64,000 nt of DNA from an uncultured Gammaproteobacteria bacterium (GTDB lineage: Bacteria > Patescibacteriota > Microgenomatia > UBA10105 > UBA927). Under the pieces are notes generated by a model. The model worked only from the letters and a program-made list of their open reading frames with translations. It was not told the origin of the DNA and did not search any database. Of the stretch, positions 27,476-59,216 are shown one piece after another; position 1 is the stretch's first letter; each line of letters starts with the position of its first letter. The stretch is from the NCBI GenBank assembly GCA_964445435.1, contig CAYUKU010000001.1:118942-182941 (forward strand), given 5' to 3'. The position numbers and the translations under genes were made by a program.

Positions 27476-27476
27476 G

Positions 27477-27564: not shown

Positions 27565-27594
27565 AATGGGTGTATTATATCAGCTGATCGAAGC

Positions 27595-28242: not shown

Positions 28243-28392
28243 ACCGGGTTGCGAAATTTTGACCTTTGCCTTTGCGCGTTATCGAAATCTCGATATCTTC
28301 CACCTTTGCAATGTCACATTATATTGGTGTCGGGAGCGGATACGCGCGCAGGCAAAGAAAAAACGCGCGTCGAAATTCTACTACCCGGCATA

Positions 28393-29064: not shown

Positions 29065-29076
29065 GCCCCTATTATA

Positions 29077-38838: not shown

Positions 38839-39134
38839 AGAGGTTTTACTTTTATACCGTACGGAATGACCGCATCTATTGCGGATTGGATCGTCCGGCG
38901 CACAACCGTCACTACCCGTTGTCCCACGACTAAGTGAGAAGGGGCATAATCCACAAGTTGTGCGGTAATGCGCTCCCCGCCTTCTAGCTCAACGAGCACA
39001 ACGGGATACGGCGCCTGGTACCCGAAATCCGCGGGTGGAACGCGAATAACCGTAAAGGAACGGATAACGCCCGTTTTCCCGATCATGCGGGCGACGTATT
39101 TCTGATTTCTCCACACTTTGACCGGACTTAACAT
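38835..39134 (-). CDS. DUF35-type OB-fold protein (partner of archaeal-type HMG-CoA synthase/thiolase complex)
   Basis: 99 aa, position between thiolase and GHMP kinase exactly as in archaeal/CPR mevalonate operons; OB-fold-sized. Confidence 0.6.
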   Translation of the reverse strand: MLSPVKVWRNQKYVARMIGKTGVIRSFTVIRVPPADFGYQAPYPVVLVELEGGERITAQLVDYAPSHLVVGQRVVTVVRRTIQSAIDAVIPYGIKVKPL

Positions 39135-39135
39135 A

Positions 39136-42482: not shown

Positions 42483-43096
42483 AGAAACGGAATGCGAAAA
42501 ATTCCCAGCCGATACATCAAAACGCTGTATGCGCCAAGAAGCGGAAGCACGACCACACACACGATCGTAATTTTCCCCAAATCCAGCTTCAGACCAAACC
42601 GCAATGCCAAGTACCCCAAAATGACTTTCCAAAACAAAAGCGTCGATGAAAAGAGGAGATACAGAGCGCTGAAAAGGACGCCATAAACGCTGGTCGTTCT
42701 GGGGGGAGGAAGAAGAACGTACAAAAGCGAGGTTGACAAAAACCACAGAAGCGTGGGGATAAGCGTATATCCCCATCCGAGAAGAAGCCCCCTGAGAGTC
42801 CCTTTCGCGCCAACCAGCCTCCCCGCGGTCCAAAAAAGAAACACCGTCAAAAGATACGTAACAAGCACGGCGACGGCTAATACCACAAAGTGACGGGTGA
42901 GCAAAAACGGCCGAAACGATGCTGTTTTCACGAGCGCAGCGCTTGCGAAATAGGTCGACAACAGGAGGGCTATCCCCACCAGTTCCCAGAGATTCCCCTC
43001 GCGCTCAATCCGCCGGTATGTTTCATACGGGCGGGAAAGAATCCCGACAATCGTTCGGCCAAACGATACCGCAATAGTAATTGCCTTCTCATCCAT
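42479..43096 (-). CDS. Polytopic membrane protein (Yip1-domain-like), hypothetical
   Basis: 205 aa, 5 TM helices; 4-bp overlap with HMGR start suggests co-transcription. Confidence 0.5.
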   Translation of the reverse strand: MDEKAITIAVSFGRTIVGILSRPYETYRRIEREGNLWELVGIALLLSTYFASAALVKTASFRPFLLTRHFVVLAVAVLVTYLLTVFLFWTAGRLVGAKGTLRGLLLGWGYTLIPTLLWFLSTSLLYVLLPPPRTTSVYGVLFSALYLLFSSTLLFWKVILGYLALRFGLKLDLGKITIVCVVVLPLLGAYSVLMYRLGIFRIPFL

Positions 43097-43972: not shown

Positions 43973-44025
43973 ACCAGGAATGCTTCAAAGCATATCATAT
44001 CACCCAGCAGGATCGCAAAGCAGAA

Positions 44026-44054
44026 TTGACACTCCCCACCTCTTGCCATACACT
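44026..44054 (+). promoter_or_regulatory. Putative sigma-70-like promoter for pilin array (TTGACA-17 bp-TACACT)
   Basis: Perfect -35 hexamer at 44026-44031, 17-bp spacer, -10-like TACACT at 44049-44054, ending 6 bp before the first pilin ATG (possible leaderless or very short leader). Confidence 0.3.
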
Positions 44055-44060
44055 TATGGT

Positions 44061-44369
44061 ATGGAGCGTGTTTACGCGGCAGTTAATATCGAGGAGGTTT
44101 TCCCGCCCGCCGAAAATTTCAACCAAATAGGGCCCCTGGTGTCCGTTATCGTAAAAAACGCCTTTATGCTTGCCGGCGTCATTACGCTTGTATTGATCGT
44201 TTTGGGGGGATTTGGGATAATAGCTTCTGCCGGAGGAGATACCAAGAGGCTTGACCAGGGTAAAAAAACAATTACCGGCGCAGTGGTCGGTCTTCTGGTC
44301 ATTGTAGGATCTTTCTGGATCGTCCAGATAATCGAAACGCTCACCGGATTGACACTTATTCCGAAATAA
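44061..44369 (+). CDS. VirB2/TrbC-like pilin paralog 1 of tandem array
   Basis: Core LAGVITLVLIVLGGFGIIASAGGDTKRLDQGKKTITGAVVGLLVIVGSFWIV; start taken at MERVYAAV (ORF track 43980). Confidence 0.6.
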   Translation: MERVYAAVNIEEVFPPAENFNQIGPLVSVIVKNAFMLAGVITLVLIVLGGFGIIASAGGDTKRLDQGKKTITGAVVGLLVIVGSFWIVQIIETLTGLTLIPK

Positions 44370-44370
44370 T

Positions 44371-44721
44371 ATGGACGACATCGTCGGCAAAATAGATAAC
44401 CCGCTTCCCTCAGCCTACAAAAACCTGGCCGGATCGGCCGGACAGGCGGGGGGACTTATTCTTTTCTTCTCCAACGTCCTTCGGCTGGTGTTTGTGATCG
44501 CGGGCATTTACGCATTCATCAACTTCATTATCGCAGGCTACACCTACATGAGCGCGGGCGGAGACTCCAAATCCATCGCAAGTGCGTGGGCGCGCATCTG
44601 GCAGACGCTTCTTGGACTCGTCGTTGTTGTTGGATCATTTGCCATCGCGTCTCTTATGGGACAGCTTATTTTCGGTGACCCGCAGTATATTCTCAATCCG
44701 ACACTATACGGACCCAAATAA
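44371..44721 (+). CDS. VirB2/TrbC-like pilin paralog 2
   Basis: Core IAGIYAFINFIIAGYTYMSAGGDSKSIASAWARIWQTLLGLVVVVGSFAIA; 1-bp spacing from previous gene. Confidence 0.6.
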   Translation: MDDIVGKIDNPLPSAYKNLAGSAGQAGGLILFFSNVLRLVFVIAGIYAFINFIIAGYTYMSAGGDSKSIASAWARIWQTLLGLVVVVGSFAIASLMGQLIFGDPQYILNPTLYGPK

Positions 44722-44724
44722 TCT

Positions 44725-45096
44725 ATGGCAACAGGGGGACAACCATTAGGACCAATTGGCGGCGAGGGGCTTGGCCCGTTTGGCAATATCGGGAAGTCGT
44801 CCGATAAATATGCAGGTATTACCAGCGCCCTTGACACTGTCAGCTCTATTGTCGGATTTATGACTATCGTTGCCGGCATCTGGTTTCTGTTTATGCTTCT
44901 TTTTGCCGGATACGAGTGGATTTCCGCAGGCGGCGATACGAAAAAAATCGGAAGTGCGCGAGACCGCATCACCCATGCGTTTACCGGACTGGTTATCGTC
45001 GTAGGCGCCTGGAGCTTGCTTGCGGTTGCCGGACAATTTTTCGGCTACGATATTCTCGTCAACCCGAGAGACGTCATTAATAATTTAGGGCTCTAA
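44725..45096 (+). CDS. VirB2/TrbC-like pilin paralog 3
   Basis: Core VAGIWFLFMLLFAGYEWISAGGDTKKIGSARDRITHAFTGLVIVVGAWSLL. Confidence 0.6.
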   Translation: MATGGQPLGPIGGEGLGPFGNIGKSSDKYAGITSALDTVSSIVGFMTIVAGIWFLFMLLFAGYEWISAGGDTKKIGSARDRITHAFTGLVIVVGAWSLLAVAGQFFGYDILVNPRDVINNLGL

Positions 45097-45100
45097 ACTT

Positions 45101-45457
45101 ATGGAACACACGCTTTTGGCACAACTAAGAAACCCGGTCCTCCCTAACATCATCGGCGGAGGGAACACGCCAGATTACAAAACCGGCGGCACCGCCCTGG
45201 GAAGCCTTGTAAGCAGCATCATAGGAGCACTTTTTATCGCAGGTTTTTTGCTTGCGTTTTTCATGCTTCTGCAGGGCGGCCTTAAATGGATTACCGCCGG
45301 AAGCGACAAAACCAAACTTGAGGGCGCGCGTGATGCAATCACAAATTCTATCATCGGCATTATCGTCGTGGGGGCTGCATACGGAGTCACTGTGGTTGTG
45401 GCGAGATTTTTCGGACTGGAACTCGAGTCGCTTCCTATCCCGTCCATAACGCAGTAA
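45101..45457 (+). CDS. VirB2/TrbC-like pilin paralog 4
   Basis: Core IAGFLLAFFMLLQGGLKWITAGSDKTKLEGARDAITNSIIGIIVVGAAYGV. Confidence 0.6.
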   Translation: MEHTLLAQLRNPVLPNIIGGGNTPDYKTGGTALGSLVSSIIGALFIAGFLLAFFMLLQGGLKWITAGSDKTKLEGARDAITNSIIGIIVVGAAYGVTVVVARFFGLELESLPIPSITQ

Positions 45458-45494
45458 CGCTTGTGAAACGTCGGGGTTGACAATGCCGACAAAA

Positions 45495-45523
45495 TTGCGC
45501 AACAATGAGAAGTAAGCTATAAT
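45495..45523 (+). promoter_or_regulatory. Putative internal promoter within pilin array (TTGCGC-17 bp-TATAAT) followed by consensus SD AAGGAGG
   Basis: Perfect -10 TATAAT at 45518-45523 with 17-bp spacer from TTGCGC; the intergenic gap before paralog 5 is the only long one in the array; SD AAGGAGG at 45538-45544, ATG at 45551. Confidence 0.45.
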
Positions 45524-45550
45524 ACGCGGTGTAGCGTAAGGAGGATTCAT

Positions 45551-45880
45551 ATGAAGGTTTTCGCAGCAGATCCGCAAATCACCATCAAGCAGCCGACAAA
45601 CATCAAAATCGGCGACGTCGGACAGCTTATTTCTGCAGTGGTCGGAACCCTCCTTATTATCGCGGCACTCCTTGCGTTCTTCTACCTTATTCTCGGTGGT
45701 ATCCAATGGATAACCTCCGGCGGTGATAAGGCAGGCATGGAAGCCGCCCGCAATAAGATTACCCACGCGATCGTCGGACTGATCATCGTGGGAGCAGCTT
45801 GGGCCATCATGCTTCTCGTCCAGAACTTCCTGGGCGTGACGATCATCGGCGGGCAGCTCAACTTCCCGACGCCGTTTTAG
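45551..45880 (+). CDS. VirB2/TrbC-like pilin paralog 5
   Basis: Core IAALLAFFYLILGGIQWITSGGDKAGMEAARNKITHAIVGLIIVGAAWAIM; strongest RBS of the array. Confidence 0.65.
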   Translation: MKVFAADPQITIKQPTNIKIGDVGQLISAVVGTLLIIAALLAFFYLILGGIQWITSGGDKAGMEAARNKITHAIVGLIIVGAAWAIMLLVQNFLGVTIIGGQLNFPTPF

Positions 45881-45904
45881 CAAGAGTCGTGCTACAATAG
45901 GCTC

Positions 45905-46249
45905 ATGAACTTCTTGTCGAAATTCCCTTCTTTTTTCGTGCACGCGTCGCAATTGGGGAACCTCGAAGACACGGACGTGGCGACCATTCAGTCCCTTGAG
46001 ACATTGTTTGCCAATTTCGTCAAAACGATTGTCGCGCTTGCGGGAGTAGCGCTATTTATCATGTTTGTCGTTGCAGGATTCACGTATCTGTTTGCCGGAG
46101 GGGATGCCAAGAAATCAGAACAAGCCCGCGGAACGCTCTCAAATGCCGTCATCGGTCTCGTCGTCGTCGTTGCCGCGTATCTTATCGTCAGAATCATCAG
46201 CGTCTTTACCGGTGTCCCTGAGGTCTTGCAGTTTGCCATACCAAAGTAA
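45905..46249 (+). CDS. VirB2/TrbC-like pilin paralog 6
   Basis: Core LAGVALFIMFVVAGFTYLFAGGDAKKSEQARGTLSNAVIGLVVVVAAYLIV. Confidence 0.6.
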   Translation: MNFLSKFPSFFVHASQLGNLEDTDVATIQSLETLFANFVKTIVALAGVALFIMFVVAGFTYLFAGGDAKKSEQARGTLSNAVIGLVVVVAAYLIVRIISVFTGVPEVLQFAIPK

Positions 46250-46264: not shown

Positions 46265-47794
46265 ATGAAAAAGATCGTCCGCTTCGGCCTTATACTTCTT
46301 TTTGCGCTCATTACTCTTCCTTCGCTGTGGCCAATATTCGCCCAAACACCCACTCCTGCTGCCAGCAGTTCGTGGAAGCACCCAAGTGAACAGGCGGTCG
46401 GAGACGCTATTTACGGCGGAGACGATGTAAATCTCGAATCTTCCTGGAGTATCGGTAATACGGTCGGCATGCTCGATGTCGCGGATAAAATCGGCGGCAT
46501 TCTGTGCTCTTCAAGTACCGGCGATGCCACCAAGTGCGTCGGTGAAAGCACCGTCGGCACGCTGGGGAGAGTCATTGCCAAGACGTTCATCGAGAAACCG
46601 GCAGACACCGGCATGTGGATTGCCGATGTGGGTCACACGCTCGGGTTTGCCCCCAAGCCCGTCTATGCTCAGGGTGTCGGGTTCTCCGGACTGGCTCCGC
46701 TTCTTCCTATCTGGAAGGCATTCCGAAATATCGCATATCTTCTCATGGCGCTTGTGATGATTGTGCTTGGATTTATGATCATGTTTCGGAAAAAAATTGA
46801 TCCCAAGACCGTCGTAACTGCCCAAAATGCAATTCCCCGCGTTGTCATCGCCCTTATCCTCATCACGTTCTCGTACGCGATCGTAGGACTTGCCATAGAT
46901 GCCATGTACATCGTTTTATACTTCGCAATCGCGCTGTTTAAGTCCACCGGGTATCTGCCTGCTCCCGATCCTGCCACACTCACCGGGTTTTTTGCGGAAA
47001 AAACAGGACTGACGACAGCCGAAAAGTTGTATTCACAGGGGGGGCTCTGGTGGAATTTCGGCGCTATTGAGTGGGATCCGTATAAAATTCTCTTCGGCTT
47101 CAACACCCAGGGGTGGAGTCCGGCCATAACCATAGGCTCGAGCGTTCTGGCGCTCCTTTCTGCTATATTCGTCATCCCCGCGACATTTTTCGCAGCACCC
47201 GTCGTCGGAGGCATTCTCACCATCGGCTTTGCCGCGATGCCCCTTATCCATCTTCTTCTGAGTATCGCTATGCTGTACTTGTTTATCCGGCTTGCGTTTT
47301 TCTTTATTTCCGCGTATATCCAGATTATCATCTCGCTTCTGATGTCTCCGCTTCAGCTTCTTGCCGAAGCCTTCCCCGGCAGCAACGCATTCAGCTCATG
47401 GTTTAAGAATCTGATCGCCAACTTAGCCGTCTTCCCCATCGGGGGGGCGATGTTTATGCTCTCGGCAATATTCACGCAGTTTACGAGAGACCCTTCCGTG
47501 CTTCCGCAACAGTCCATCTGGACACCGCCATACACCAGTATAGGCTTCGTCAATAACACCACGTCCATAGCATCAATCGTTGCGCTTGGCATCCTCTTTG
47601 CCATTCCGCAGGTGGCAGGATCAGTGAAGGAGTCCCTGAAAGCCAAGCCTGCTGTACCGATGATGGACTTCGGACAGGCGGGCGGCACTGCCATGAACCT
47701 CTTGTCTACTGCGTACTACTTCAAGATGCTCGCCCCGAGCGGTCTGTGGGACAAAATCACTGGTGGCGGCGGGAAGAAAGATGCGCACGGGTAA
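46265..47794 (+). CDS. VirB6/TrbL-like polytopic T4SS membrane protein (signal peptide, extracytoplasmic N-domain, 6 or more TM helices)
   Basis: 509 aa; signal peptide; about 120-aa N-terminal soluble domain then a multi-TM core and Gly-rich C-terminal tail; directly follows the pilin array on the same strand, as VirB6-like genes do in other T4SS loci. Confidence 0.5.
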   Translation: MKKIVRFGLILLFALITLPSLWPIFAQTPTPAASSSWKHPSEQAVGDAIYGGDDVNLESSWSIGNTVGMLDVADKIGGILCSSSTGDATKCVGESTVGTLGRVIAKTFIEKPADTGMWIADVGHTLGFAPKPVYAQGVGFSGLAPLLPIWKAFRNIAYLLMALVMIVLGFMIMFRKKIDPKTVVTAQNAIPRVVIALILITFSYAIVGLAIDAMYIVLYFAIALFKSTGYLPAPDPATLTGFFAEKTGLTTAEKLYSQGGLWWNFGAIEWDPYKILFGFNTQGWSPAITIGSSVLALLSAIFVIPATFFAAPVVGGILTIGFAAMPLIHLLLSIAMLYLFIRLAFFFISAYIQIIISLLMSPLQLLAEAFPGSNAFSSWFKNLIANLAVFPIGGAMFMLSAIFTQFTRDPSVLPQQSIWTPPYTSIGFVNNTTSIASIVALGILFAIPQVAGSVKESLKAKPAVPMMDFGQAGGTAMNLLSTAYYFKMLAPSGLWDKITGGGGKKDAHG

Positions 47795-47806
47795 ACAATT
47801 CGCCAA

Positions 47807-50800
47807 TCACGAATGACCGCCACCGCCACCCGCGCCTGAAGCATCCTGCACGCCCTTCTTTGCACTTCCAAATGCACCCATAGCAAGAAGCGCGCCTCCG
47901 ATAAGCACGAACGCATACGCATTATATAAGCGCACGGTCTTGAATCCTGCAATCTGAATCCCGAACTTCCGGTGCATTTTGTGGGTAAAGTCAGGCATGT
48001 GAGTATGAAACTTCGTCTCCAATGCCGCCTCTACCTCGTGCTCGAGATGGTCCAAATCCACCCGACCCATGGCCGGTGCTCCTTGCCCTACCGCGCGCTG
48101 AGCCGCAGAAAGATCCATCGTCGTTCGATCATCACTAATACCTGATAAGTCGGCCCACAAATCTTTCACAACGGCCTGACGCCAACCATAGAACAACGTC
48201 TGCCCGACCGGTGCCTTGGCGCCCTCATAGCCACCGCTGAAGAGAATCGTGTCCACAAACGGCTTGAAATGCTGCATGAATGTCTTGCCATCCTTGGCGC
48301 CCAGTATGCCGATAAGGTCCTTCGCCATGGCATTCACTGAGTTTTGCGTATCTCCGGCCCAGCGCGGTAATCCGCCACCCGCACCGTGACCGCCCCGCAC
48401 TGAACTGATACGACCGGACCATTTGAGTTCCTTGCGTTGATGATCGGGATTATTGTCCTTAATGCCGTCCAGAAATTTGATACGCGGGTCGATCGTGTTC
48501 ACGGTCGTGAAATGAGCGGCGTACGCGGGATTTGCAAGATCTTCGATAATATGGGGATTGAGAGCAAAATCCGATGCGGCCTTCATCACATCCAGGTACG
48601 CTTTTACGTTTTCTTCTGGCGTAAGACTGCTGTCGCCCGTGGCGACACAAACTTTTTTAAGTGCGGCCTGTTCATGCGGCGAATAGACGCTCATATCTCC
48701 ATTCCACTTGGAGTAGTCAATCGGCCCTTGCGGCGTTTCTATCAGTTTTCCCCCGCTCCATTCGCGGGTAAGCGCAAGCTCAGTGTCTACCATCGCCCGT
48801 CGCATTTCGGCAGCCTTGATGGCTCCCCGCACAAACTGTTCCGGATTATTCGCGTTATAGACAAGATTCTCGCCCATTGCCGCATCGTGGAACCGGCTGA
48901 ACAGTGCGGAATTTGTGGAAAACCATTCAAACGTCTTCTCATGCATCTTTTGAGCAAGCGCATCGATGCTTGCGATGGGATCAAACTTCCCCATTAAGAC
49001 GAATGTCTTGGTTTTGAGTGTCACCTCTGCATCATGAAACTTCTTATGATCTCCCGCAGTATCAAACAGGCCGCCTGCGTCCAGACGAGCCGTCTCGTGG
49101 AGCAGAACTCCATTCGTCATGCCGGTATCTGCGTCAACGACTTTATAGAGACCAAAGTCCTTGAGAGCATCGATCTGCGACCCTATTTGCCAACCGGAAT
49201 CTATGTAATGATACGCTCCTGAGAACCGGGCGTCCAAGAGCCGTCGCCCTTCCCGATAGATAATCTGCTCCTCCAAATCAGCCTTCGTCAGCTCTGAAAG
49301 CGTCTGGGGAGTTTGTCGTTGCAATCCCTCCCGAGTTCCGCCAAAGAGCTGACGCAGAAAACTGTCCTCTCTTCGTATGCGCAATGAGCCAAACGCTCGT
49401 GCGACTGTCGCCTGATCATCCAGATCGTTGATGTTGAAAGCCATTTTCACCAGACGGTTCCATTCCGCCTGCGCCGCCCGCCCCTCGGGTGTAGGCAAAT
49501 TCCGTATTTTGTCAAGCTGACCTAACCGCGCGCGCCAATACGTATCGAGACCCACCCGTGATGCTTCCACGGCAAACATCTTTCGCATGACGAGGGCACC
49601 GAAATCGCTCTTAATCGCCCACCGATCTACCAGCCATTTAAACGGGTTCATCGAGAAAATGATTTTTCCCTCTGCCGGTTGGCCAGCAAACTCAAGCGGA
49701 TTTCCACTCTGGTGCATCATCTCAATCGGGGTAGCGGCTTTGCCGAAGATCTGTGCGCGCTGACCAGTGGCTTCGATAAGCATCGAAACTTCTCTCACGG
49801 CCATCTCTATGTCCGTCTTCTCAATTCTACGCCGTATGATGCGTCCGTTTTCATCTTTTCTCACGTCTCCATTTGTGTCGTATTCAACGCTTCCTTCCCA
49901 CTCCTGAAACCGGTCATTATACATCCCCTTTTGAGTTTGAGCGTGTGCCCACATTTGATCGACTATTGCGTCTTCCATCACTTCAATTCTCCCTGCTGTT
50001 AACGCACGGATGTATCCGTTCTCATCCCAAATTTCTGCCGCAAAGCGCTGTTTAAACACGCCAAACACCTCAAGATTGAGTCCGTTACGCTCATTTAACG
50101 TGCGCGGATACCCCTCGTCGCCGAAAATCGCGTAAACGCTCTTAAGCTTGTCCATCTCCGTATCAAGCTCAAGGCCTCCTTTTAAACGCAATAGCGCGCC
50201 GCGGATAGAAATAGTTCTGGAGATCTCTTTATTCCATTCAAGATACCCCTCGTTCATTTCCCTGTACCACTTATGATTAGTGTTGAGGACGCGGTTGCCA
50301 TCGCTGTCCAAAACCGGACTTCCATCAGGACGGACTTGGTAGATCGACTCTCCGCTTATTTGCGTAATCTCATCCCAGTTTCTCGGATCCCTCAAGTAAG
50401 CGAGGCGATTTTTGCGGTAATCATCGCTTGCGGCGTATTGAATAAGCTGAGAGTAATTGCGGTCAGCGGCCTCTTCCCACTTTCCTTCAAAAACGTTCAC
50501 AGTGGCGTTTATGAAATCCTGCTTGCTTCTGGCAAACACATCCACCCCGCGCCATGACCGCTTCATTTCTTCCAGAGAAAGGTATAAGCTGCTCCATCCC
50601 CGCTCAAGCTCACGCTCGGTGTACCGTTCCCTTCCAACACTAAGCGCCGTCTCCCGGAATGTTTCATACTTTTGGGCCAACTCCGGCTGGTCCGCCATGA
50701 GCCGTCTCCATGTATAGCTATCAGTATTGTGGTCCTGCATGGCAGTCATAAAATCAAAAATCTCATTTCGTACCCGCGGATCGTTCATGTTCCCGTGAGC

Positions 50801-52078
50801 ATCATGAAGGATTTTGTTGAAATGCTCCAGGCGGGATTTGAGATTTCGTGCCGCTACCCGCTCGGCAGGAATTGCCCTTGGACCTGCCACTTTATCCAGA
50901 TACTTTAACGCACCCGCGCTAAATTCATCGCCTCCGGGCGCTCTGCGCCTCGCACCACGCGCTCTTCCGCGCCCCCGACTCGTCCCAGCGGTGCCGATTG
51001 CCTCAAGCGCATCCTCAGCCCGATCGCCAAACTCGGGACTCACCTCATCGTGGTACATCTGGGCGACCTTCTCGGCGAAGCGTTTACGGAACGTATCACG
51101 CTCGCGCACCTGCTCATCAGTTGATCCCTGCCCGAGCGCCTTAATCTGAGAGCCCTTGGCAAGCAAAAACTCCTTGGTCCACGCATCTTCGCCGGCCTGT
51201 GCAATGTCATACACAACCTGCGCAATATCGGGATCTTTTATCAGCTCGCCATCAGAAACCAACCAGGATAATTCATTCGTCGTTCGTATTGTTTCTTGTA
51301 TCTTCCGATTCGCTTCGGCAGGTTCAACCGTACGCGTAATTTCCGGTCCCAACTTAAAGTCATCTAGAATCTGCGTCTCCAGATCCTCCGCCCACGCTTG
51401 GGTGTTCTCGGGATGCGCGCTGTGTGCGTGGTAATACACTGCCTGCTCGTCTTTCGTAATGCGCTCCACGCTTGCGCCCTTAAACGCCGGGTCATTTTTC
51501 ACGACTTCATCAAACCTCTTTCCTGAAGAGCCCTTAATCGCATCCCAATTGCGATATCCCCATTCGTACGCCGCCTGCCGCACTTCTCGCAAAACCATCT
51601 GATCCGACTCGCTTAGAGTCGTCATCTGCGGCATGTCTTTGAGGATGGTGCGCACCTTCGTCCATTCCTCTGCGCTGGGCGTGCTCCAGTTAATTTCCGG
51701 CGGCTGTTTATTCGGCGAAAGGCGGCTGATGCCGCCCAAAAGCCGCTGGTTATCTATAGGAACCGACGCGCGGAACTGATCTGACACGAGTACCGTCATC
51801 TTCTGCTCCGCAGAAAGCGGAGATCCCGCCTCTTGTCCGGCACGGATCATGGCTTTGCGGACAACTTCCGTATCCTGAACTTTGGGCTGGGTTTCTCCTT
51901 TGGTTTGAGGCGAGACATCAGGAGCTTTTTTTGGTTCTACTTTCTTCCCTCGTTCTTTCGCCTTTGCCTGGGTATTTGCGGTTGCAGCTTCCGCCTGCAC
52001 GACCATCGGAAGCGGTTTGTTTTTCCCCGCGTTTTCAAAAAGCGATTTCAGTGCATCGAAGAGTTCTTTTGACGCCAT
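47807..52078 (-). CDS. Giant (1423 aa) tail-anchored hypothetical protein, no recognisable domains
   Basis: Single uninterrupted 4.27 kb ORF; Arg/Gly-rich patch SRGRGRARGARRRAPGG; single C-terminal TM helix LYNAYAFVLIGGALLAMGAF followed by a Gly-run; downstream of T4CP-like gene and nadD on the same strand. Confidence 0.6.
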   Translation of the reverse strand: MASKELFDALKSLFENAGKNKPLPMVVQAEAATANTQAKAKERGKKVEPKKAPDVSPQTKGETQPKVQDTEVVRKAMIRAGQEAGSPLSAEQKMTVLVSDQFRASVPIDNQRLLGGISRLSPNKQPPEINWSTPSAEEWTKVRTILKDMPQMTTLSESDQMVLREVRQAAYEWGYRNWDAIKGSSGKRFDEVVKNDPAFKGASVERITKDEQAVYYHAHSAHPENTQAWAEDLETQILDDFKLGPEITRTVEPAEANRKIQETIRTTNELSWLVSDGELIKDPDIAQVVYDIAQAGEDAWTKEFLLAKGSQIKALGQGSTDEQVRERDTFRKRFAEKVAQMYHDEVSPEFGDRAEDALEAIGTAGTSRGRGRARGARRRAPGGDEFSAGALKYLDKVAGPRAIPAERVAARNLKSRLEHFNKILHDAHGNMNDPRVRNEIFDFMTAMQDHNTDSYTWRRLMADQPELAQKYETFRETALSVGRERYTERELERGWSSLYLSLEEMKRSWRGVDVFARSKQDFINATVNVFEGKWEEAADRNYSQLIQYAASDDYRKNRLAYLRDPRNWDEITQISGESIYQVRPDGSPVLDSDGNRVLNTNHKWYREMNEGYLEWNKEISRTISIRGALLRLKGGLELDTEMDKLKSVYAIFGDEGYPRTLNERNGLNLEVFGVFKQRFAAEIWDENGYIRALTAGRIEVMEDAIVDQMWAHAQTQKGMYNDRFQEWEGSVEYDTNGDVRKDENGRIIRRRIEKTDIEMAVREVSMLIEATGQRAQIFGKAATPIEMMHQSGNPLEFAGQPAEGKIIFSMNPFKWLVDRWAIKSDFGALVMRKMFAVEASRVGLDTYWRARLGQLDKIRNLPTPEGRAAQAEWNRLVKMAFNINDLDDQATVARAFGSLRIRREDSFLRQLFGGTREGLQRQTPQTLSELTKADLEEQIIYREGRRLLDARFSGAYHYIDSGWQIGSQIDALKDFGLYKVVDADTGMTNGVLLHETARLDAGGLFDTAGDHKKFHDAEVTLKTKTFVLMGKFDPIASIDALAQKMHEKTFEWFSTNSALFSRFHDAAMGENLVYNANNPEQFVRGAIKAAEMRRAMVDTELALTREWSGGKLIETPQGPIDYSKWNGDMSVYSPHEQAALKKVCVATGDSSLTPEENVKAYLDVMKAASDFALNPHIIEDLANPAYAAHFTTVNTIDPRIKFLDGIKDNNPDHQRKELKWSGRISSVRGGHGAGGGLPRWAGDTQNSVNAMAKDLIGILGAKDGKTFMQHFKPFVDTILFSGGYEGAKAPVGQTLFYGWRQAVVKDLWADLSGISDDRTTMDLSAAQRAVGQGAPAMGRVDLDHLEHEVEAALETKFHTHMPDFTHKMHRKFGIQIAGFKTVRLYNAYAFVLIGGALLAMGAFGSAKKGVQDASGAGGGGGHS

Positions 52079-52147: not shown

Positions 52148-52702
52148 CTATTTGTAAAGTCCGCGTGTTTCGAGGTATTCCACTATAGCCTTGGGCACGA
52201 ACTGGTCAATCGGCAAACCCCTTGCCACACGCTCCCGGATTTTTGTGGAAGAAATATTGCTGCCGATGAGAAGCTTATCTGTGATCACCTTCATTCCCTC
52301 ATAAAGTGGCTCATTGGGAAACCCATACCGGGGAAACACAAAAAACGGCATCTTTGAAAGTAATTTTTCCCAATCCAGCCACAAATGAAACGTCGGAAGC
52401 TGATCAGAGCCGATTATAAATGAAAATTCGTGTTCGTTGGGAAGATGCGGAAGAATATGTACCGTTTCTCCATCAAGCTTGTTATCAATCTCTATCGTCG
52501 ACACGCGCGTCCGCGGAGCGGTTAAGAGTCTCGTCATGGCAAGGCGGTCCTCAACCGGTGCAACCGGCTTGGGCGGCGACTGGGCGAAATTCGGCAGAAA
52601 CCACACCTCATCCATATCAGTAAAATCTAAAACCTGCTGGGCAATCATAAGATGCCCCAAGTGAGGAGGATTGAATGCACCGCCGAGAAGTGCCACTCGC
52701 AT
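52148..52702 (-). CDS. nadD: Nicotinate-nucleotide adenylyltransferase
   Basis: GGAFNPPHLGHL (HxGH) nucleotidyltransferase motif and C-terminal ISSTKIR motif. Confidence 0.85.
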   Translation of the reverse strand: MRVALLGGAFNPPHLGHLMIAQQVLDFTDMDEVWFLPNFAQSPPKPVAPVEDRLAMTRLLTAPRTRVSTIEIDNKLDGETVHILPHLPNEHEFSFIIGSDQLPTFHLWLDWEKLLSKMPFFVFPRYGFPNEPLYEGMKVITDKLLIGSNISSTKIRERVARGLPIDQFVPKAIVEYLETRGLYK

Positions 52703-52705: not shown

Positions 52706-54892
52706 TTATTTATTCACCTTCTTGGCATACCGCTCGCGGGAGGAGCGGATGACTTTTTCTCTATTCTGGTTTCTGCTTCTGGGAAGGGGCAATGTCTTCG
52801 CAGAAAACGGCGAACTCGTGTGATTGTCAATTGACAGCTTCATGACGACCTCATAGTTACCCATCGCCACGAGCTCGTTTTCCTCATACTTCTCGCCGAA
52901 TTCCCGCGACAGAATCCGTGCGTCTGCCGCGCCCACCCCAAAGGAAACAATGGATCCCGCGTTGCCGAATATCGCCTTCTGGACATCTTCGTCAATCTGA
53001 CCAATATACTGGTTTGCAAGCGTCAAATCCAGGCGGTATTTACGCGCCTCGGAGAGAATTTTTATAAATGATGTGGTGGCGAAATTCTGAAACTCGTCAA
53101 CGTACAGATAAAAGTCGCGCCGCTCCCCTTCTGCCAGATATACGCGGTTCATAGCGGCAAGCTGCATTTTCGTGATGATCATGGCCCCCAGAAGCGCACT
53201 GCTGTCTTCTCCGAGCTTGCCTTGAGACAAGTTTACGAGAACTATCTTCCCCTGGTTCATCATGCTCTCAAGATCAACTGTTGACGTGGGGCTTCCGACG
53301 ATATTTCTGATTGTTTGTGATGAGAGAAACTGCCCGACCTTGTTGAGAATCGGCGACACTGCTTCTGAGCGCATTTGTGGCGACATTTTCGCAAACTCAT
53401 TGAGCCAGAAATTTTTGAGAACCTGGTCTGCCATCTTCTCAACGACCTTGCCGCGGTATTTTTCGTTGGTGAGAAGCTCGGGCACCTGAAGAAGCGTCGA
53501 ATTGGGAACATTCGTAAGGGTCAGAATGGTATTTCTCAGAATATATTCGAGCCGCGGCCCCCAGCTTAGGTGGTACAGTTTGTAAAAAATCGAAACGATG
53601 CCGCTACTGACCAGCTCGCGATAGGCCGTGTTTCTTACTTCCAGCGGATTCAGGTGAAATGGATACTCAATATCTGATGGGTCCAAATACGCAACGTCGT
53701 TAATGCGGTGCGATGGCACGTAATCCAAGAGGATATCCGTTAAGTCACCGTGAGGGTCGACGACGGCCACCCCTTCGCCGTTTTTCATGTCATTGATCGC
53801 CATATTGGCGATCATCGTTGATTTACCGGTACCCGTCTTTCCGACGATATACACATGTTTCCTGCGGTCTGCCTTCTTGATGCCAAATGTGGCGAGCTTG
53901 TTTTTGTATTCCGTGCGTCCGAAGAAGTTAATCTGCTTTTTCTCTTCCTCATTGTCCGTTGCCACGGGCAGATTCTCCGGAGCCTCACCGGTCAACTGGG
54001 AACCCCAGGAGATATTTTTAATCATGGAAAGCGCAAGTCCCGGCGGATGCCAGAGGGAGGCAAGCTCACTGGCGTTGAGAACCTGGAATCGGGGCGCAAC
54101 TGAACCGTTTCTCTCCACAAAGCCCTGTTCGAGTTTTTTCTTCTGCCAGAACGCGGGCTCGCTGATCACCAATCCGTTTCCCTCTCCCAACGTGTACACC
54201 CCAAACGTCCCACCCACTCCGTGAAGCAGCTCGTTTGCACGCGCGTCGGAGGCGGCCACCGACACGAGCCGAATTGCCGTTCCAAAACCAACCTGGGCGA
54301 TTTTGGTCTCAATGAGGCGCGCATGGGGATGGGCCTTCATGCGACCCGTCGTTGATGACGTGTCGGGAACTCCCCTTGCAACAATCGCGGAAGCCGAATG
54401 CTGCCAATTGGTTCCTGCCGGAGTAATGCGAAACTGGATAGCGACCGCCTCCCCAACCGGAAGCTTGGCCAGCTGTCCCAGAAGGCTTGCCAGAATATCC
54501 AAGTCTTTTACGTCTTTGTACGTTTTGAGAGGATAGTAGTACGCATTGGATAAGACGACCTGTGCAATCTTATGCGGAAGGGCGAGAAAGTGCGGCGCGT
54601 AATCCTCAACCGGCGCCAAAAGCACTTTCGGGTATTGCGCGGTCAGTTGACTCTCCACATACGTCTGGAGTGACGAAGGTACGCCGACGAAAAAATGAAT
54701 CCGCGAGTTGACGGCAACCAGCTCAAAACTGAAATACTTCGGCGCATGACGGGGACGAAACAACATGGAAAGAAACCCGCCATGGCCACCTCCGGCGCCT
54801 AGCGCGGCAAAAATCTGCTCCATTGCGGCAGGCGTTTCTTCTGAGTCGCGGCTATTTTTTACTTCCAGAAGCACAAACGGAGATTCCGTCAT
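52706..54892 (-). CDS. VirD4/TraD/TrwB-like type IV coupling protein-like ATPase (FtsK/HerA superfamily)
   Basis: Walker A IVGKTGTGKST...VVDPHGD; C-terminal block ILSEARKYRLDLTLANQYIGQIDEDVQKAIFGNAGSIVSFGV resembles the TrwB_AAD/T4CP DNA-binding ATPase motif; no obvious N-terminal TM (atypical for T4CP). Confidence 0.55.
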   Translation of the reverse strand: MTESPFVLLEVKNSRDSEETPAAMEQIFAALGAGGGHGGFLSMLFRPRHAPKYFSFELVAVNSRIHFFVGVPSSLQTYVESQLTAQYPKVLLAPVEDYAPHFLALPHKIAQVVLSNAYYYPLKTYKDVKDLDILASLLGQLAKLPVGEAVAIQFRITPAGTNWQHSASAIVARGVPDTSSTTGRMKAHPHARLIETKIAQVGFGTAIRLVSVAASDARANELLHGVGGTFGVYTLGEGNGLVISEPAFWQKKKLEQGFVERNGSVAPRFQVLNASELASLWHPPGLALSMIKNISWGSQLTGEAPENLPVATDNEEEKKQINFFGRTEYKNKLATFGIKKADRRKHVYIVGKTGTGKSTMIANMAINDMKNGEGVAVVDPHGDLTDILLDYVPSHRINDVAYLDPSDIEYPFHLNPLEVRNTAYRELVSSGIVSIFYKLYHLSWGPRLEYILRNTILTLTNVPNSTLLQVPELLTNEKYRGKVVEKMADQVLKNFWLNEFAKMSPQMRSEAVSPILNKVGQFLSSQTIRNIVGSPTSTVDLESMMNQGKIVLVNLSQGKLGEDSSALLGAMIITKMQLAAMNRVYLAEGERRDFYLYVDEFQNFATTSFIKILSEARKYRLDLTLANQYIGQIDEDVQKAIFGNAGSIVSFGVGAADARILSREFGEKYEENELVAMGNYEVVMKLSIDNHTSSPFSAKTLPLPRSRNQNREKVIRSSRERYAKKVNK

Positions 54893-55218: not shown

Positions 55219-56631
55219 ATGGAACAACATCCGGTACCACAAAACGTCACCACATTTCAGTTTCGACTGATCGGCGACATGACCATTAAACAGTTCGGCT
55301 ATCTGGCCGGAGGAGCAATCTTGGCGTATATCTGCTATAAGCTCCCGCTGCCGTTTTTCTTCACCTGGCCCATGGCAACGATAGCAGCTCTCGCAGGTGT
55401 TGGATTTGCGTTCGTTCCGGTCGAGGAACGCCCAATGGACATCTGGGTCATGTCGTTCATAAAAAACGTCTACAACCCGACGCAATTTGTGTGGGAAAAA
55501 ACAGCCGAACCTCCAAAGCCCGCCCCCGCGGCTCCCCCAGCACCTCGACCTGTTGTTGCGCCGCATCCAAAACCAACCATGGGAACACCCGCACCCTCTG
55601 CGGTTTCCCACGCACAGCCTCAAGCTCCAGCCGCGCAAACAGGGCGCCAAGTCTCAGACGTCGTGGCGGGGATATTTACACAGCCAAAACCGACCCAGCC
55701 AATGCCAGCGCCCGTCGGGCAGACCGTGCCGACCCCTGCATATCATCCAAGCCAAACGGCAGGGAAAAAAGTTGGCCCCTTTGACTGGCTAGTCCGGCTA
55801 TTTGCACCAGCTGCGCGGCCCGCGACGAGCCCGCAACACGTGGTGCCCTATCAAAGCGCACCAACGTCGTTATCGGCTGCACCCTCAATTTCTGCTCCCT
55901 CGGTAACGGGCCGACATCTGGATCTCACGCCGCCGCCAAAAGTCGTTCCTACGGAAACGCAAATGGCAACGGTCCAAAAAAAGGAAACTGAGTTGGAAAC
56001 GAAACTTCAGGAACTGAAGGTAGAATTGGAAACCAAAACACAAACACAGGCGCGGGTGCTGGAACTGCAAAAACAGCTGACCGATATGCTCTCTGAGCGA
56101 GATCGCATGAGAAAAGAGCTCGAAGCGCTTCGCGCCAAAGCGGCGCCTCCCCCTGCGCCAACCGCCGTCGTACCGCCGAAGCCGGCAGACACAAATACGG
56201 TTGTCTCGACACCCCCTCCGCAAACTGCCGCAGCGCCCCAACGACCACAGGGTCCGACGGTCAAAATAATTACGCCTCAGGAGGCGGTGAAAGCAGGGCT
56301 TCCGCGGCTCACCACATTTCCCAACGTTGTCACGGGCATCACGCGCGATTCGGACAACAACCTCCTCCCCGGCGTTCTTGTCACCGTCAAGGACCACGAC
56401 GGCGTGCCGGTGCGCGCCCTGAAAACAAACCGACTGGGACAATTTGCTGCTTCAACACCGCTGGGGAACGGGGTATATTTCGTGGAGATCGAAGACCCGC
56501 GAGGCCGCTACACATTTGACCGCGTGCAGATCACGCTCAATGGATCCATTGTGCCCGCTCTCGAAATCATCGCAAAAAGCCAAAAGGAAGTCGCCCGCGA
56601 AAGGCTCGCCAAGGAAATTTTCGGAAGCTAA
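55219..56631 (+). CDS. PrgI-like T4SS membrane protein with long Pro-rich linker, coiled coil and C-terminal beta-sandwich-like domain
   Basis: N-terminus FQFRLIGDMTIKQFGYLAGGAILAYICYKLPLP matches the PrgI-family motif and two-TM topology; then about 150 aa Pro/Ala-rich low complexity, a coiled coil (about 250-300) and a C-terminal about 110-aa domain. Confidence 0.55.
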   Translation: MEQHPVPQNVTTFQFRLIGDMTIKQFGYLAGGAILAYICYKLPLPFFFTWPMATIAALAGVGFAFVPVEERPMDIWVMSFIKNVYNPTQFVWEKTAEPPKPAPAAPPAPRPVVAPHPKPTMGTPAPSAVSHAQPQAPAAQTGRQVSDVVAGIFTQPKPTQPMPAPVGQTVPTPAYHPSQTAGKKVGPFDWLVRLFAPAARPATSPQHVVPYQSAPTSLSAAPSISAPSVTGRHLDLTPPPKVVPTETQMATVQKKETELETKLQELKVELETKTQTQARVLELQKQLTDMLSERDRMRKELEALRAKAAPPPAPTAVVPPKPADTNTVVSTPPPQTAAAPQRPQGPTVKIITPQEAVKAGLPRLTTFPNVVTGITRDSDNNLLPGVLVTVKDHDGVPVRALKTNRLGQFAASTPLGNGVYFVEIEDPRGRYTFDRVQITLNGSIVPALEIIAKSQKEVARERLAKEIFGS

Positions 56632-56632: not shown

Positions 56633-57292
56633 ATGGTACAAAAAATTATTCCCATAAGATCGACAACCCAACTGTTCGTTGAAATTGAAACGATCGACCA
56701 CGACATAGTCGTATATCAGGATGGCTCGGCCAGCCTCGTCATCACCACAACAGCGGTTAACTTTGGCCTTCTGTCTGAGCGGGAACAGGACGCAATCATT
56801 ACCGCATACGCGGGACTTCTTAATTCGCTGTCCTTCCCCATTGAGATTCTTATACGCACGCAGCATAAAGACGTGACTGCATACCTGCGGCTTCTGGAAG
56901 AACAGGAACGCAAACAGAAAAACCCCAAGCTCCAAAAAAGTATCCATGACTACCGGCTGTTCGTGGCAGCAACTGTCAAGGAGAAGGATGTACTAGATAA
57001 GAAATTCTATATCATCATTCCGTTTTCGAACCTGGAGCTGGGAGCTTCCCCAACTGTATTGTTCGGCAGCAAGAAGAAAGGCCTGCCATATCCACTCTCA
57101 TATATTTTCGAACGCGCATTGACCGTCCTCAACCCGAAACGCGACCATATCCTACGACTTCTTAACCGCGTCGGACTTCAAGCAAGTCAATTGACAAACC
57201 AACAGCTGGTAAAGCTCTTTTTTACAACCTATAACGCGGGGGTTCCATTGCCCGATGACGAAACAGTAACCCACGCGCTTACCCGTACATGA
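56633..57292 (+). CDS. Hypothetical T4SS-associated protein (220 aa), possibly VirB4 N-terminal-domain-like
   Basis: Starts 1 nt after PrgI-like stop and ends 1 nt before VirB4 ATG; no ATPase motifs; ORF-track N-terminal extension (from 56444) overlaps the PrgI-like gene and is rejected. Confidence 0.45.
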   Translation: MVQKIIPIRSTTQLFVEIETIDHDIVVYQDGSASLVITTTAVNFGLLSEREQDAIITAYAGLLNSLSFPIEILIRTQHKDVTAYLRLLEEQERKQKNPKLQKSIHDYRLFVAATVKEKDVLDKKFYIIIPFSNLELGASPTVLFGSKKKGLPYPLSYIFERALTVLNPKRDHILRLLNRVGLQASQLTNQQLVKLFFTTYNAGVPLPDDETVTHALTRT

Positions 57293-57293: not shown

Positions 57294-59216
57294 ATGAGCA
57301 TAAAAGCAGCACTCAGAAAAATCATTGACCCGATGCCGGAAGAGAAACCGGTCAATCAGACGGTACATACCGAAAACTTGACTGTGAAGGATATTATAGC
57401 CCCTCCCTCAATTGATGTAGACTTTGACCATCTGAAAATAGGCAATTACTACTACCGCACGCTCTTTGTGGCAGGGTACCCGCGGTTTGTAAGTGCCAAC
57501 TGGCTTGAGCCGCTTATCTCCTTCAACCATACGCTTGATATCGCCATGTATGTGTACCCAACCAGAAGTGAAGAGGTGTTGGAAAATCTGAAGCGTAAAG
57601 TGGGAGAAATGGAGGCGACCATCCAGTCCGACATGAAGCGCGGCAGAGTAATCGAACCGTCCATCCAGGTAGCCCTTGAAGACGCCCTTGCGCTTCAACA
57701 AGAGCTCGCCAAAGGAGCACAACGGTTCTTCCAGTTCGGACTCTATGTCACTATTCCCGCAAAAAGCCTGGACGACCTCAATAAGGCAACCAAGCAGGTC
57801 GAGGCAACGCTCGCCTCGCTTCTTATCGTCACCAAACGGGCAACGCTCCAGATGGAGGAGGGTCTCAAGACTACGCTTCCGATGGGCCAGGACCGTATCG
57901 TTATCACGCGAAACATGGACACCACGTCCCTGGCAACCACCTTCCCTTTCACGACAAGCGAGTTGACCGCAAACGAAGGAATCCTCTACGGGATCAACTC
58001 GCACAACGATAGCCTGGTGGTATTTGACCGGTTTACGCTCGAAAATGCCAACACCGTCGTCTTCGGAAAATCGGGCTCGGGAAAAAGCTACATGGTGAAA
58101 CTGGAAATCCTGCGAAGTCTCATGTTTGATACCGAAGTGATCGTCATCGACCCCGAGAACGAATACGAAACGCTTACGCGAGCGCTCGGCGGCGAGTATA
58201 TCCGGTTCCACTTCGGTACGAATACGAAAATCAACCCTTTCGACATCGCCCTTTTGCATCAAACCGGGTCGGGTCAGGGAGACAGCGAGCTGAATCAAAA
58301 AATACTTTCGCTTCATGGGTTTTTTCGTGTCGTTATGGGAAAACTGACACCCACGGAAGACGCGCTTCTTGATCGTGCGCTTATCCTTGCGTACAAACAA
58401 AAGGGCATAACGCCCGACCCCACCACACAAAGCAAAGAGCCTCCCCTGATGGAAGATCTTTATAAAACGCTCGTTGGCATGGAGGATTCGATTGCGCGGG
58501 GGCTTGCCGATCGCATTGAAAAATTCGTAAAAGGAAGCCTGGTTGGAATCTTCGATCAACAAACCAATGTGGCCATCAGAAACCAGCTCACCGTGTTCTC
58601 CATACGGGATCTCGAAGACGAACTTCGCCCGATTGCCATGTATCTTATCCTCGATTTCATCTGGACCAAGGTGCGCCGCGATACGAAACGCCGAATTCTC
58701 ATCGTTGACGAGGCGTGGTACATGATGAAATTCCCGGATTCCGGCGCCTTCCTCAACTCCATCGCCAAACGTGCACGCAAGTATTATCTTGGCCTTACGA
58801 CGATCACCCAGGACGTCGAAGACTTCCTTTCAGTCGAGCTTGGGAAAACAATCATCCAAAACAGCAGCTTGCAAATCCTCCTTAAGCAATCAACGGCGGC
58901 CATAGACCGCGTCGGAGAGGTGTTCTTCCTGTCTGAAGGGGAAAAACAACTTCTCCTGTCGGCAAACGTAGGGGAGGGGCTGTTTTTCGCAGGGCCCTCA
59001 CACGCCGCAATTCGCGTGATTGCCTCCCCACAGGAGCACGCCATTATAACAACCAAGCCGCAGGATTTGGCAGCACAGAGGGCCGCACAGAACGCACCCC
59101 GGTCTCCCGCGCCTTCCGGCACCATCGTGCCGGGCGCCGTCAAACCAACACCGCCAGCCTCTGGAACAACAAATAGACCCATCTTTACGGTAGAATCAGT
59201 AAACGGAGCGCAATAA
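57294..59216 (+). CDS. VirB4-family T4SS ATPase (Gram-positive TraE/PrgJ-like length)
   Basis: Walker A VVFGKSGSGKSYM, Walker B RILIVDEAWYMM, N-terminal YYRTLFVAGYPRFV...WLEPL block typical of VirB4/TraE; 640 aa. Confidence 0.8.
   Translation: MSIKAALRKIIDPMPEEKPVNQTVHTENLTVKDIIAPPSIDVDFDHLKIGNYYYRTLFVAGYPRFVSANWLEPLISFNHTLDIAMYVYPTRSEEVLENLKRKVGEMEATIQSDMKRGRVIEPSIQVALEDALALQQELAKGAQRFFQFGLYVTIPAKSLDDLNKATKQVEATLASLLIVTKRATLQMEEGLKTTLPMGQDRIVITRNMDTTSLATTFPFTTSELTANEGILYGINSHNDSLVVFDRFTLENANTVVFGKSGSGKSYMVKLEILRSLMFDTEVIVIDPENEYETLTRALGGEYIRFHFGTNTKINPFDIALLHQTGSGQGDSELNQKILSLHGFFRVVMGKLTPTEDALLDRALILAYKQKGITPDPTTQSKEPPLMEDLYKTLVGMEDSIARGLADRIEKFVKGSLVGIFDQQTNVAIRNQLTVFSIRDLEDELRPIAMYLILDFIWTKVRRDTKRRILIVDEAWYMMKFPDSGAFLNSIAKRARKYYLGLTTITQDVEDFLSVELGKTIIQNSSLQILLKQSTAAIDRVGEVFFLSEGEKQLLLSANVGEGLFFAGPSHAAIRVIASPQEHAIITTKPQDLAAQRAAQNAPRSPAPSGTIVPGAVKPTPPASGTTNRPIFTVESVNGAQ

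Follow-up and report, generated by a model that had tools for sequence, protein, structure and literature searches.

A giant tail-anchored protein with a new predicted fold, encoded tail-to-tail with the VirB6-like gene of a Patescibacteria-type type IV secretion cluster

The window analyzed here is a 64,000-nucleotide stretch (positions 118,942 to 182,941, forward strand) of contig CAYUKU010000001.1 from assembly GCA_964445435.1, and its subject is a gene for a 1423-residue protein, hereafter the giant, embedded in a complete Patescibacteria-type type IV secretion system (T4SS) cluster. The giant gene is real, and its product founds a new family with a new fold, confidently predicted by modeling, a conserved C-terminal anchor, a strict single-copy placement among the T4SS genes, and an evolution that is fast but constrained. 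Judging from the sequence, we tentatively regard the giant as a lineage-specific, tail-anchored, cytoplasm-facing accessory T4SS subunit, acting as a scaffold or adaptor, in a Microgenomatia/Gottesmanbacteria-related clade. The system it would serve is of the Patescibacteria type: monoderm, MPF-FATA-like and piliated. Patescibacteria T4SSs are reported to be chromosomal, piliated, essential for epibiotic growth in the one tested lineage and, in most cases, without a relaxase (PMC10633639, PMC12102498, PMC12857230).

A preliminary description of this DNA had proposed a single uninterrupted open reading frame (ORF) of 4.27 kb and 1423 amino acids (aa), which is confirmed both by the ORF call (ATG-initiated, zero internal stops) and by the relatives, whose alignment begins at the same Met. 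The protein has an unremarkable composition, with 10% Ala, 8% Gly, one Cys and a net charge of -15, and starts with MASKELFDALK..., which is not signal-like. Compared with its 98%-identical relative in locus L092 (loci of relatives carry L numbers throughout), the gene has 24.8 non-synonymous vs. 58.2 synonymous differences; the resulting dN/dS of 0.118 (NG86) indicates purifying selection and thus a real, constrained gene, not a chance ORF. A candidate promoter (TTGCGA-17-TAGAAT, 52138-52110) precedes the gene, but promoter-like sites in this region do not exceed those in shuffled sequence, and no claim is made for it.

Pfam, NCBIfam, PHROGs, and PADLOC gave no match for the giant or for 27 + 8 + 10 relatives and proteins from the same slot of other loci, and the 27 aligned family members contain zero Pfam or NCBIfam domains. 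Among PDB sequences, nothing meaningful was matched by the single sequence or by the family profile (best E 0.026, a ribosomal protein). Homology to a housekeeping or other known family, a test suggested in the preliminary description, was sought in these five collections and with Foldseek, and no such family emerged; the empty profile and fold searches leave the protein with no recognizable domain and agree with the earlier statement that it has no recognizable catalytic motif. A word-indexed search covering 5.8 billion proteins returned three relatives, at 98, 75, and 45% identity, and such searches gave only 3-4 relatives even with a 27-sequence profile. The family itself was found only by an exhaustive hidden Markov model (HMM) search of 1.84 billion cluster representatives with a profile of residues 230-1423, which recovered 30 representatives, most of them 1040-1430 aa long and matching end to end. 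One of these is MBI5449632.1, from a 'Candidatus Gottesmanbacteria bacterium'; based on this one annotated relative and on locus features, the family is rare and has been seen so far only in candidate phyla radiation (CPR)/Microgenomatia-like contigs. Searches of both a plasmid and a phage collection by tblastn found no relatives, and a plasmid or phage origin of the gene was rejected on these grounds. The only match in GTDB species-representative genomes is L005 (CAYHEJ010000047.1, 4211-6214), an N-terminal fragment of 667 aa that sits where its contig ends; the label of its metagenome-assembled genome, 'uncultured Gammaproteobacteria', is probably a binning or labeling error for a CPR contig. 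No giant tail-anchored protein is described in section 13 of the T4SS paper, nor in the passages of the Southlakia transposon-sequencing paper and of a 2025 T4SS review that a keyword search reaches.

Two AlphaFold2 models were made with family alignments, one of residues 1-420, with a predicted local distance difference test score (pLDDT) of 77, and one of residues 396-1423 (pLDDT 82.4, predicted template modeling score 0.81). The latter is nearly all helical with a few short hairpins; a few hairpins of DxNG type are seen in the model only. As Foldseek found no relative below E 0.06 among 350,542 chains, the predicted fold has no solved relative. The preliminary description had suggested a look for coiled-coil or repeat architecture; the models are helical and globular, and self-BLAST of 200-aa segments revealed no internal repeats with E below 0.08. 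The family keeps its length and architecture from end to end, C-terminal helix and short tail included. Residues 1-650 are poorly conserved and residues ~650-1400 the best, with conservation rising toward the anchor, and residues ~1-230 are mostly missing from about two thirds of the aligned members. P1034, R1239, D1243, and G1283 are invariant among the 27 aligned members. R1239 and D1243 (27/27 each) belong to the Gly-rich loop GHGAGGGLPRWAGD (residues 1230-1243), whose beginning (residues 1228-1233) has a low pLDDT; near-invariant residues include W820, Y956, W963, D1197, R1199, and S1221, and in the conservation profile the Gly-rich loop is marked at 1230-1236. The sole Cys, C1144, was considered as a catalytic residue and is kept in 22/27 members, but no His is kept in at least 70% of them, and no enzyme class is proposed. 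The Arg/Gly-rich patch noted earlier, AGTSRGRGRARGARRRAPGG (residues 364-385), is indeed present in the window protein; however, it does not hold as a family feature, being a lineage-specific linker that only the window protein and its closest relatives, P0002-P0004 and P0030, possess. A nucleic-acid-binding role for it across the family was rejected since the patch is disordered and so restricted.

Hydropathy, the structural model, and the family members support the claim of a single C-terminal transmembrane helix in a protein without a signal peptide. The sole strongly hydrophobic segment, residues 1387-1405 (Kyte-Doolittle, KD, 19-aa mean 1.73), sits within a long predicted helix (1381-1413), the terminal helix of the model. 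It is preceded by ...KFGIQIAGFKTVRLYN and followed by an 18-residue Gly/His tail, SAKKGVQDASGAGGGGGHS. An N-terminal or internal hydrophobic segment is absent from 59/59 members checked. At a strict threshold, 45 of the 59 have a clear C-terminal hydrophobic segment within their last 60 residues, and most of the remaining 14 have a weaker one (e.g., ...RKYWWVVLAATVAIAI...). A median of 15 residues follows this segment; His is among the last six residues of 37 members, and a terminal Gly run occurs in 16. The helix is flanked by Lys and Arg residues on its N-side, and the tail behind it is either neutral or acidic. Under the positive-inside rule, basic residues ahead of a helix fit an N-in topology; with no signal peptide, basic residues before the helix and a short tail, we infer that the giant is N-in/C-out. 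The VirB6-like protein and the giant both end in a Gly run and a His (...TGGGGKKDAHG and ...GAGGGGGHS), and such tails recur in both proteins in the distant loci L039, L046, L055, and L087. The Gly-codon runs at the convergent 3' ends (window 47762-47830) form an 11-nt inverted repeat (47762-47772/47820-47830); a bidirectional terminator at this point is unsupported, as its folding energy is no better than that of shuffles (z -0.55, +0.22).

In the window, the giant gene converges on the VirB6-like gene and the pilin array behind it, just as the preliminary description had it, and the two stop codons are 12 nt apart. Every contig long enough shares the order M23 <- VirB4 <- TraC-like <- PrgI, T4CP (the coupling ATPase) -> nadD -> (variable inserts) -> giant -> <- VirB6-like <- pilins, sigma factor -> Yip1 -> mevalonate genes. 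In 8/8 contigs found through the giant, its gene is tail-to-tail with the VirB6-like gene. For a reciprocal census, JGI metagenomes were searched with a VirB6-like alignment, limited to loci sharing two short peptide patterns, and the 48 VirB6-type loci with at least 3.3 kb downstream served as the denominator. The giant family is directly convergent with VirB6 in 37 of these: in 33 loci, phmmer single linkage assigns an ORF of 980-1430 aa to the family, and in four more (L043, L059, L071, L083) hhalign does so (96.5-97.9% probability over 724-983 columns). Both counts speak against an absence of the gene from close relatives that keep the T4SS, the other refuting condition named in the preliminary description. 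The family HMM has one match per locus, in the slot gene only, which makes the gene single-copy, and the spacing of the giant and VirB6 stop codons is -4 to about +40 nt in most loci. The slot proteins of the other 11, distant loci (shorter ones of 560-750 aa; longer ones in L066, L078, L091) were rejected as family members, with hhalign probabilities below 2%. Eight of these loci (L067, L068, L070, L079, L084, L085, L088, L089) have minus-strand slot proteins of 560-720 aa without a clear C-terminal anchor; L067, L084, and L085 group together, as do L068 and L070.

The other side of the giant gene is less orderly. A position downstream of T4CP-nadD, as first described, is correct in that the genes share a strand in the window, but the operon link is looser than this suggests, for the relatives carry unrelated inserts after nadD. 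This spacer is an insertion hot spot, holding NAD synthase, a helix-turn-helix protein, AbiEii, a PaaX-like protein, AAA_14/DUF4143, and 23S_rRNA_IVP (L009, 7988-9609; L010, 7649-9550; L011, 8676-9836; and a contig of JGI 3300075153); no insertion was found between the giant gene and virB6 in the relatives examined. In the most distant loci, T4CP and nadD are not adjacent and an extra large gene lies ahead of VirB6, but a minus-strand gene still abuts VirB6. The invariant neighbor of the giant is the VirB6-like gene. The extra gene, on the plus strand between the last pilin and VirB6, encodes 650-1240 aa in L066, L070, L071, L078, L079, L085, and L088, and no window equivalent of it was matched. 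In the relatives examined, nadD lies between T4CP and the giant, with NAD synthase beside it in L009 (7196-7945), which indicates a housekeeping NAD-salvage gene stably embedded in the T4SS cluster.

Evolutionary rates were compared at one divergence level, that of the window proteins vs. loci L010/L012. Identity is 84% for VirB4, 80% for T4CP, 58-78% for the pilins, 57-76% for neighboring non-T4SS genes (nadD, sigma, Yip1, mevalonate), 53% for the VirB6-like protein, about 25% for the giant, and 24% for the M23 peptidase. Against L001, dN is 0.170 for the giant, 0.166 for the M23 peptidase, 0.096 for VirB6-like, 0.033 for T4CP, and 0.030 for VirB4. The giant and the M23 peptidase are therefore the fastest-evolving genes of the locus, the giant being nonetheless under purifying selection.

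As an accessory subunit, the giant would be made in the cytoplasm without a signal peptide and inserted post-translationally through its single C-terminal helix, N-in and C-out. Some 1,380 residues, mostly helical and novel in structure, would then lie on the cytoplasmic face of the membrane, with about 18 Gly/His-rich residues outside. The membrane-proximal, conserved two thirds (residues ~650-1400) may dock on the VirB6-like protein, PrgI/VirB3, VirB4, and T4CP, and the variable N-terminal region, absent from some members, may reach into the cytoplasm and serve there as a scaffold or adaptor in assembly, positioning, or the recruitment of substrates. Secretion machines are known to use tail-anchored accessory subunits, e.g., TssL in the type VI secretion system (T6SS) and DotU/IcmH in the type IVB secretion system (T4BSS). 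We infer a physical association with the T4SS and a scaffold or adaptor role from this precedent, from the fixed position and copy number, from the end-to-end architecture, and from the conservation gradient toward the anchor. Conservation that rises to the anchor, together with an N-terminal region that is often missing, is the pattern expected of a membrane-docked subunit. The lack of plasmid or phage relatives and the chromosomal, oriC-proximal dnaN context match the chromosomal T4SSs of Patescibacteria (PMC12102498).

Several observations weigh against an accessory subunit. The sequence and fold searches found no homology of the giant to any T4SS subunit, and in 11 of the 48 census loci the slot is taken by an unrelated ORF of 560-1536 aa that has no Pfam match. 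The giant's rate of evolution is ~5 times that of the ATPases and ~2 times that of VirB6; so high a rate is unusual in core cytoplasmic subunits and is met more often in host-facing proteins. The C-terminal segment has no more than moderate hydrophobicity (KD 0.9-1.7) in 14 of the 59 members, which makes stable membrane anchoring less than certain. The whole neighborhood (sigma factor, Yip1, mevalonate) is syntenic in the clade, which makes adjacency weaker evidence, and, being convergent, the giant gene and virB6 are not co-transcribed.

The rapid evolution that the giant shares with the M23 peptidase is what would be expected of proteins that interact with a host, and it is the first of several features that would suit a T4SS substrate or effector, recognized by the coupling ATPase through its C-terminal region, translocated, and inserted in a membrane of the host bacterium. 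This, the main alternative, we consider somewhat unlikely. The giant gene lies downstream of T4CP, where relaxases or effectors are often encoded, and the protein combines a large new fold with no enzymatic signature. The moderate C-terminal hydrophobicity of the 14 members mentioned above, and tails rich in Glu/Lys (e.g., ...EGLEEEKKR) or Gly/His, would also fit, as T4SS transmembrane effectors have moderate hydrophobicity and Glu-rich C-terminal signals (PMC12981334, PMC11602083), and no relaxase is known for Patescibacteria T4SSs (PMC12102498, PMC10633639). Such an effector might first be parked in the membrane of the epibiont, in the manner of the two-step route of Legionella transmembrane effectors. 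On the other hand, the giant occurs strictly in one copy and at one fixed position, with its length kept over deep divergence, whereas effector repertoires tend to be patchy; slot genes related to it remain in loci where no T4CP adjoins; and a dN/dS of 0.12 gives no overall sign of positive selection. An N-in/C-out anchor would moreover put a C-terminal signal outside, hidden from T4CP, and known T4SS transmembrane effectors are mostly N-in/C-in (PMC12981334). The bolder proposal that the giant is Patescibacterial T4SS cargo, handed over by the adjacent coupling ATPase and injected into a host bacterium, where its C-terminal helix anchors in the host membrane and its body remodels or taps the host, is unlikely; if true, the giant would be the first identified substrate of the secretion system on which cultivated Saccharibacteria depend for their epibiotic lifestyle.

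It is also possible, but quite unlikely, that the giant is unrelated to the T4SS and is a clade-specific membrane-anchored cytoplasmic protein (e.g., cytoskeletal, envelope- or division-related) that owes its place to a conserved oriC-proximal gene order. That order is kept far beyond the T4SS genes in the same contigs, the housekeeping gene nadD also lies inside the cluster, and convergent genes leave no operon link to virB6. What argues against mere proximity is that distant loci change their surroundings and a homologue (L043, L059, L071, L083) still abuts VirB6 in a pilin-VirB6-PrgI-VirB4 block, that inserts pile up on the nadD side and never between the giant and virB6, and that neither the exhaustive HMM search nor the HMM scan of the loci ever found the family outside the VirB6 slot. 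A surface adhesin, with the large domain outside and held by the C-terminal helix, had been among the candidates of the preliminary description. Large size and fast evolution would suit such a protein, giant surface proteins are common in CPR genomes, and Gram-positive T4SSs use surface adhesins (PMC12102498). However, none of the 59 members has an N-terminal signal peptide or hydrophobic segment, there is no LPXTG or other sorting motif ahead of the helix, and the basic residues are on its N-side. The predicted fold is globular and made up almost wholly of helices, without Ig-like, beta-solenoid, or repeat architecture, and, other than the T4SS itself, which would make the giant an effector, no export route is known for 1,380 residues without a signal peptide. 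An adhesin is disfavored because no member carries an export signal, and we regard it as very improbable.

Among known proteins, the closest parallel to an accessory subunit is offered by TssL/DotU/IcmH, which likewise have a single C-terminal transmembrane helix, a cytoplasmic bulk, no enzymatic motif, and a gene in a secretion cluster, the topology of the giant being predicted. The C-terminal helix is present and conserved in the giant family, and its orientation is predicted from the charge distribution alone. The differences are in size and fold, the TssL/DotU/IcmH proteins being ~200-260 aa long with a DotU/TssL fold and the giant family 890-1430 aa, and in the host systems, T4BSS/T6SS in one case and a monoderm MPF-FATA-like T4SS in the other; the giant has neither the DotU/TssL fold nor a match to the Pfam DotU family. 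The transmembrane effectors of the Legionella, Coxiella, and Brucella T4SSs resemble the giant in being large, without a signal peptide, and in having a segment of moderate hydrophobicity and a C-terminus that is polar or Glu-rich (PMC12981334, PMC11602083), and further in their fast evolution and in a genome with a T4CP-dependent T4SS. They differ in that they come from diderm pathogens of eukaryotes, mostly have 1-2 helices with both ends cytoplasmic, and are numerous and patchy; the giant is present in one copy at a fixed position, with its helix within the last 40 residues and a presumed bacterial target. Southlakia epibionticum has SEML1_0007, SEML1_0011, and SEML1_0013, hypothetical proteins of ~1000-1100 aa that are likewise encoded in an essential Patescibacteria T4SS cluster with a pilin array (PMC10633639). 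By the descriptions given there, SEML1_0013 and SEML1_0011 have structure-based VirB6/TrbL-like and 'type IV secretion system protein' matches, SEML1_0007 adjoins virB4, where the window has the M23 peptidase, and none of the three is described as tail-anchored (PMC10633639).

The membrane subunits of monoderm T4SSs (VirB6/PrgH, VirB8/PrgL, VirB3/PrgI, VirB1/PrgK) resemble the giant in being membrane-associated and encoded beside virB4, virB6, and virD4 homologues. They differ from it as follows: VirB6 is a polytopic protein, VirB8 combines an N-terminal helix with an NTF2-like fold, VirB3 is a small protein, and VirB1 hydrolyzes peptidoglycan. VirB6-, VirB3-, and VirB1-like (M23) proteins are already encoded in the locus, and neither in sequence nor in fold does the giant match any of them. 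Identity with VirB6/TrbL/PrgH was rejected because the giant has a single hydrophobic segment vs. at least 5 transmembrane helices and the adjacent 509-aa gene fills the role; identity with VirB8/PrgL/TcpC, because the giant lacks an N-terminal transmembrane helix followed by an NTF2-like domain. A relaxase (MOB) was rejected, there being no Pfam/NCBIfam match in the giant or the 27 aligned members and no PDB sequence or fold match, as were a PrgB-like LPXTG adhesin, with no signal-like segment in 59 members and no LPXTG before the helix, and an Rhs/YD-repeat or other repeat protein, with no tandem repeats by self-BLAST. Failing the tested defining features of VirB6, VirB8, relaxases, LPXTG adhesins, and repeat proteins, the giant is filed under no known family; the description that suits it best is that of a new lineage-specific component of the Patescibacteria monoderm-type T4SS, or possibly of its cargo. 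Whether subunit or cargo, it gives a concrete handle on transport by, and organization of, the Patescibacteria T4SS (PMC10633639, PMC12102498, PMC12857230). The conserved anchor-proximal residues R1239, D1243, G1283, and P1034 are ready targets for mutagenesis, and CPR genome annotation gains a 59-member family with its HMM.

Table 1. Features of the giant protein and of the surrounding T4SS locus (coordinates in the window).
Feature	Coordinates	Strand	Basis or remark
Giant ORF	47807-52078	-	1423 codons including ATG start, stop within span; homologues align end to end; dN/dS 0.118
Low-complexity Lys/Ala/Pro/Glu-rich segment, residues 16-69	51872-52033	-	Predicted disordered (pLDDT <50); poorly conserved
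N-terminal all-helical domain, residues 70-362	50993-51871	-	Confident helical domain in AlphaFold2 model
Arg/Gly-rich disordered linker, residues 365-385	50924-50986	-	Composition; pLDDT <50
Conserved family core, residues 400-1380	47939-50881	-	Predicted mostly alpha-helical, few short beta hairpins
Gly-rich loop, residues 1230-1243	48350-48391	-	Holds invariant R1239 and D1243
Single C-terminal hydrophobic helix (tail anchor), residues 1383-1405	47864-47932	-	KD 1.73; long helix in model
Short polar tail, residues 1406-1423 (AKKG..GGGGGHS)	47810-47863	-	Probably extracytoplasmic
Six VirB2-type T4SS_pilin genes	43980-46249	+	Array upstream of VirB6-like gene
VirB6-like polytopic membrane protein, 509 aa	46265-47794	+	Signal peptide, at least 6 hydrophobic segments; convergent with giant gene
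nadD (nicotinate-nucleotide adenylyltransferase)	52148-52702	-	69 nt upstream of giant gene
T4CP (VirD4-like coupling ATPase)	52706-54892	-	Upstream, same strand as giant
PrgI/VirB3-like fusion	55219-56631	+	Divergent from T4CP
TraC/TrsD-like gene	about 56633-57292	+	T4SS cluster
VirB4	57294-59216	+	T4SS cluster
M23 peptidase, 771 aa	59220-61535	+	T4SS cluster
dnaN	62569-63672	-	~1 kb past T4SS cluster end

With dnaN ~1 kb away, the T4SS cluster is probably near oriC, a location that many Patescibacteria are reported to share. The 470 aa of the PrgI/VirB3-like fusion comprise a PrgI domain (residues 5-88), then a coiled-coil-like region, and a weak CarboxypepD_reg-like domain (residues 371-427). 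Directly after the M23 peptidase, and syntenic in relatives, is a Pfam-less ORF of 337 aa; this and further large Pfam-less ORFs (552, 357, 426, and 605 aa) lie at 18008-21977 (-), 29945-31762 (-), and 61551-62564 (+). The other content of the window is housekeeping, including rpoD, dnaG, PilB/PilC, tmRNA, tRNAs, and mevalonate pathway genes. The tmRNA (29076-29485) and six tRNA genes (22115-27564) are clustered at 22115-29485 (-). The mevalonate cluster (36048-42833, -), in a small CPR-type genome, encodes HMG-CoA reductase, an HMG-CoA synthase-like protein, thiolase, and GHMP kinases, and undecaprenyl-diphosphate synthase (35326-36030) lies beside it. Because the listed ORF for HMG-CoA reductase (501 aa from a TTG start) overlaps Yip1, translation probably begins ~115 codons downstream. 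At 4586-8678 (-), an aromatic amino acid lyase (7011-8678), a Pfam-less 488-aa ORF (5542-7008), and a ThiF-family protein (4586-5542) may form a small modification or biosynthetic cassette.

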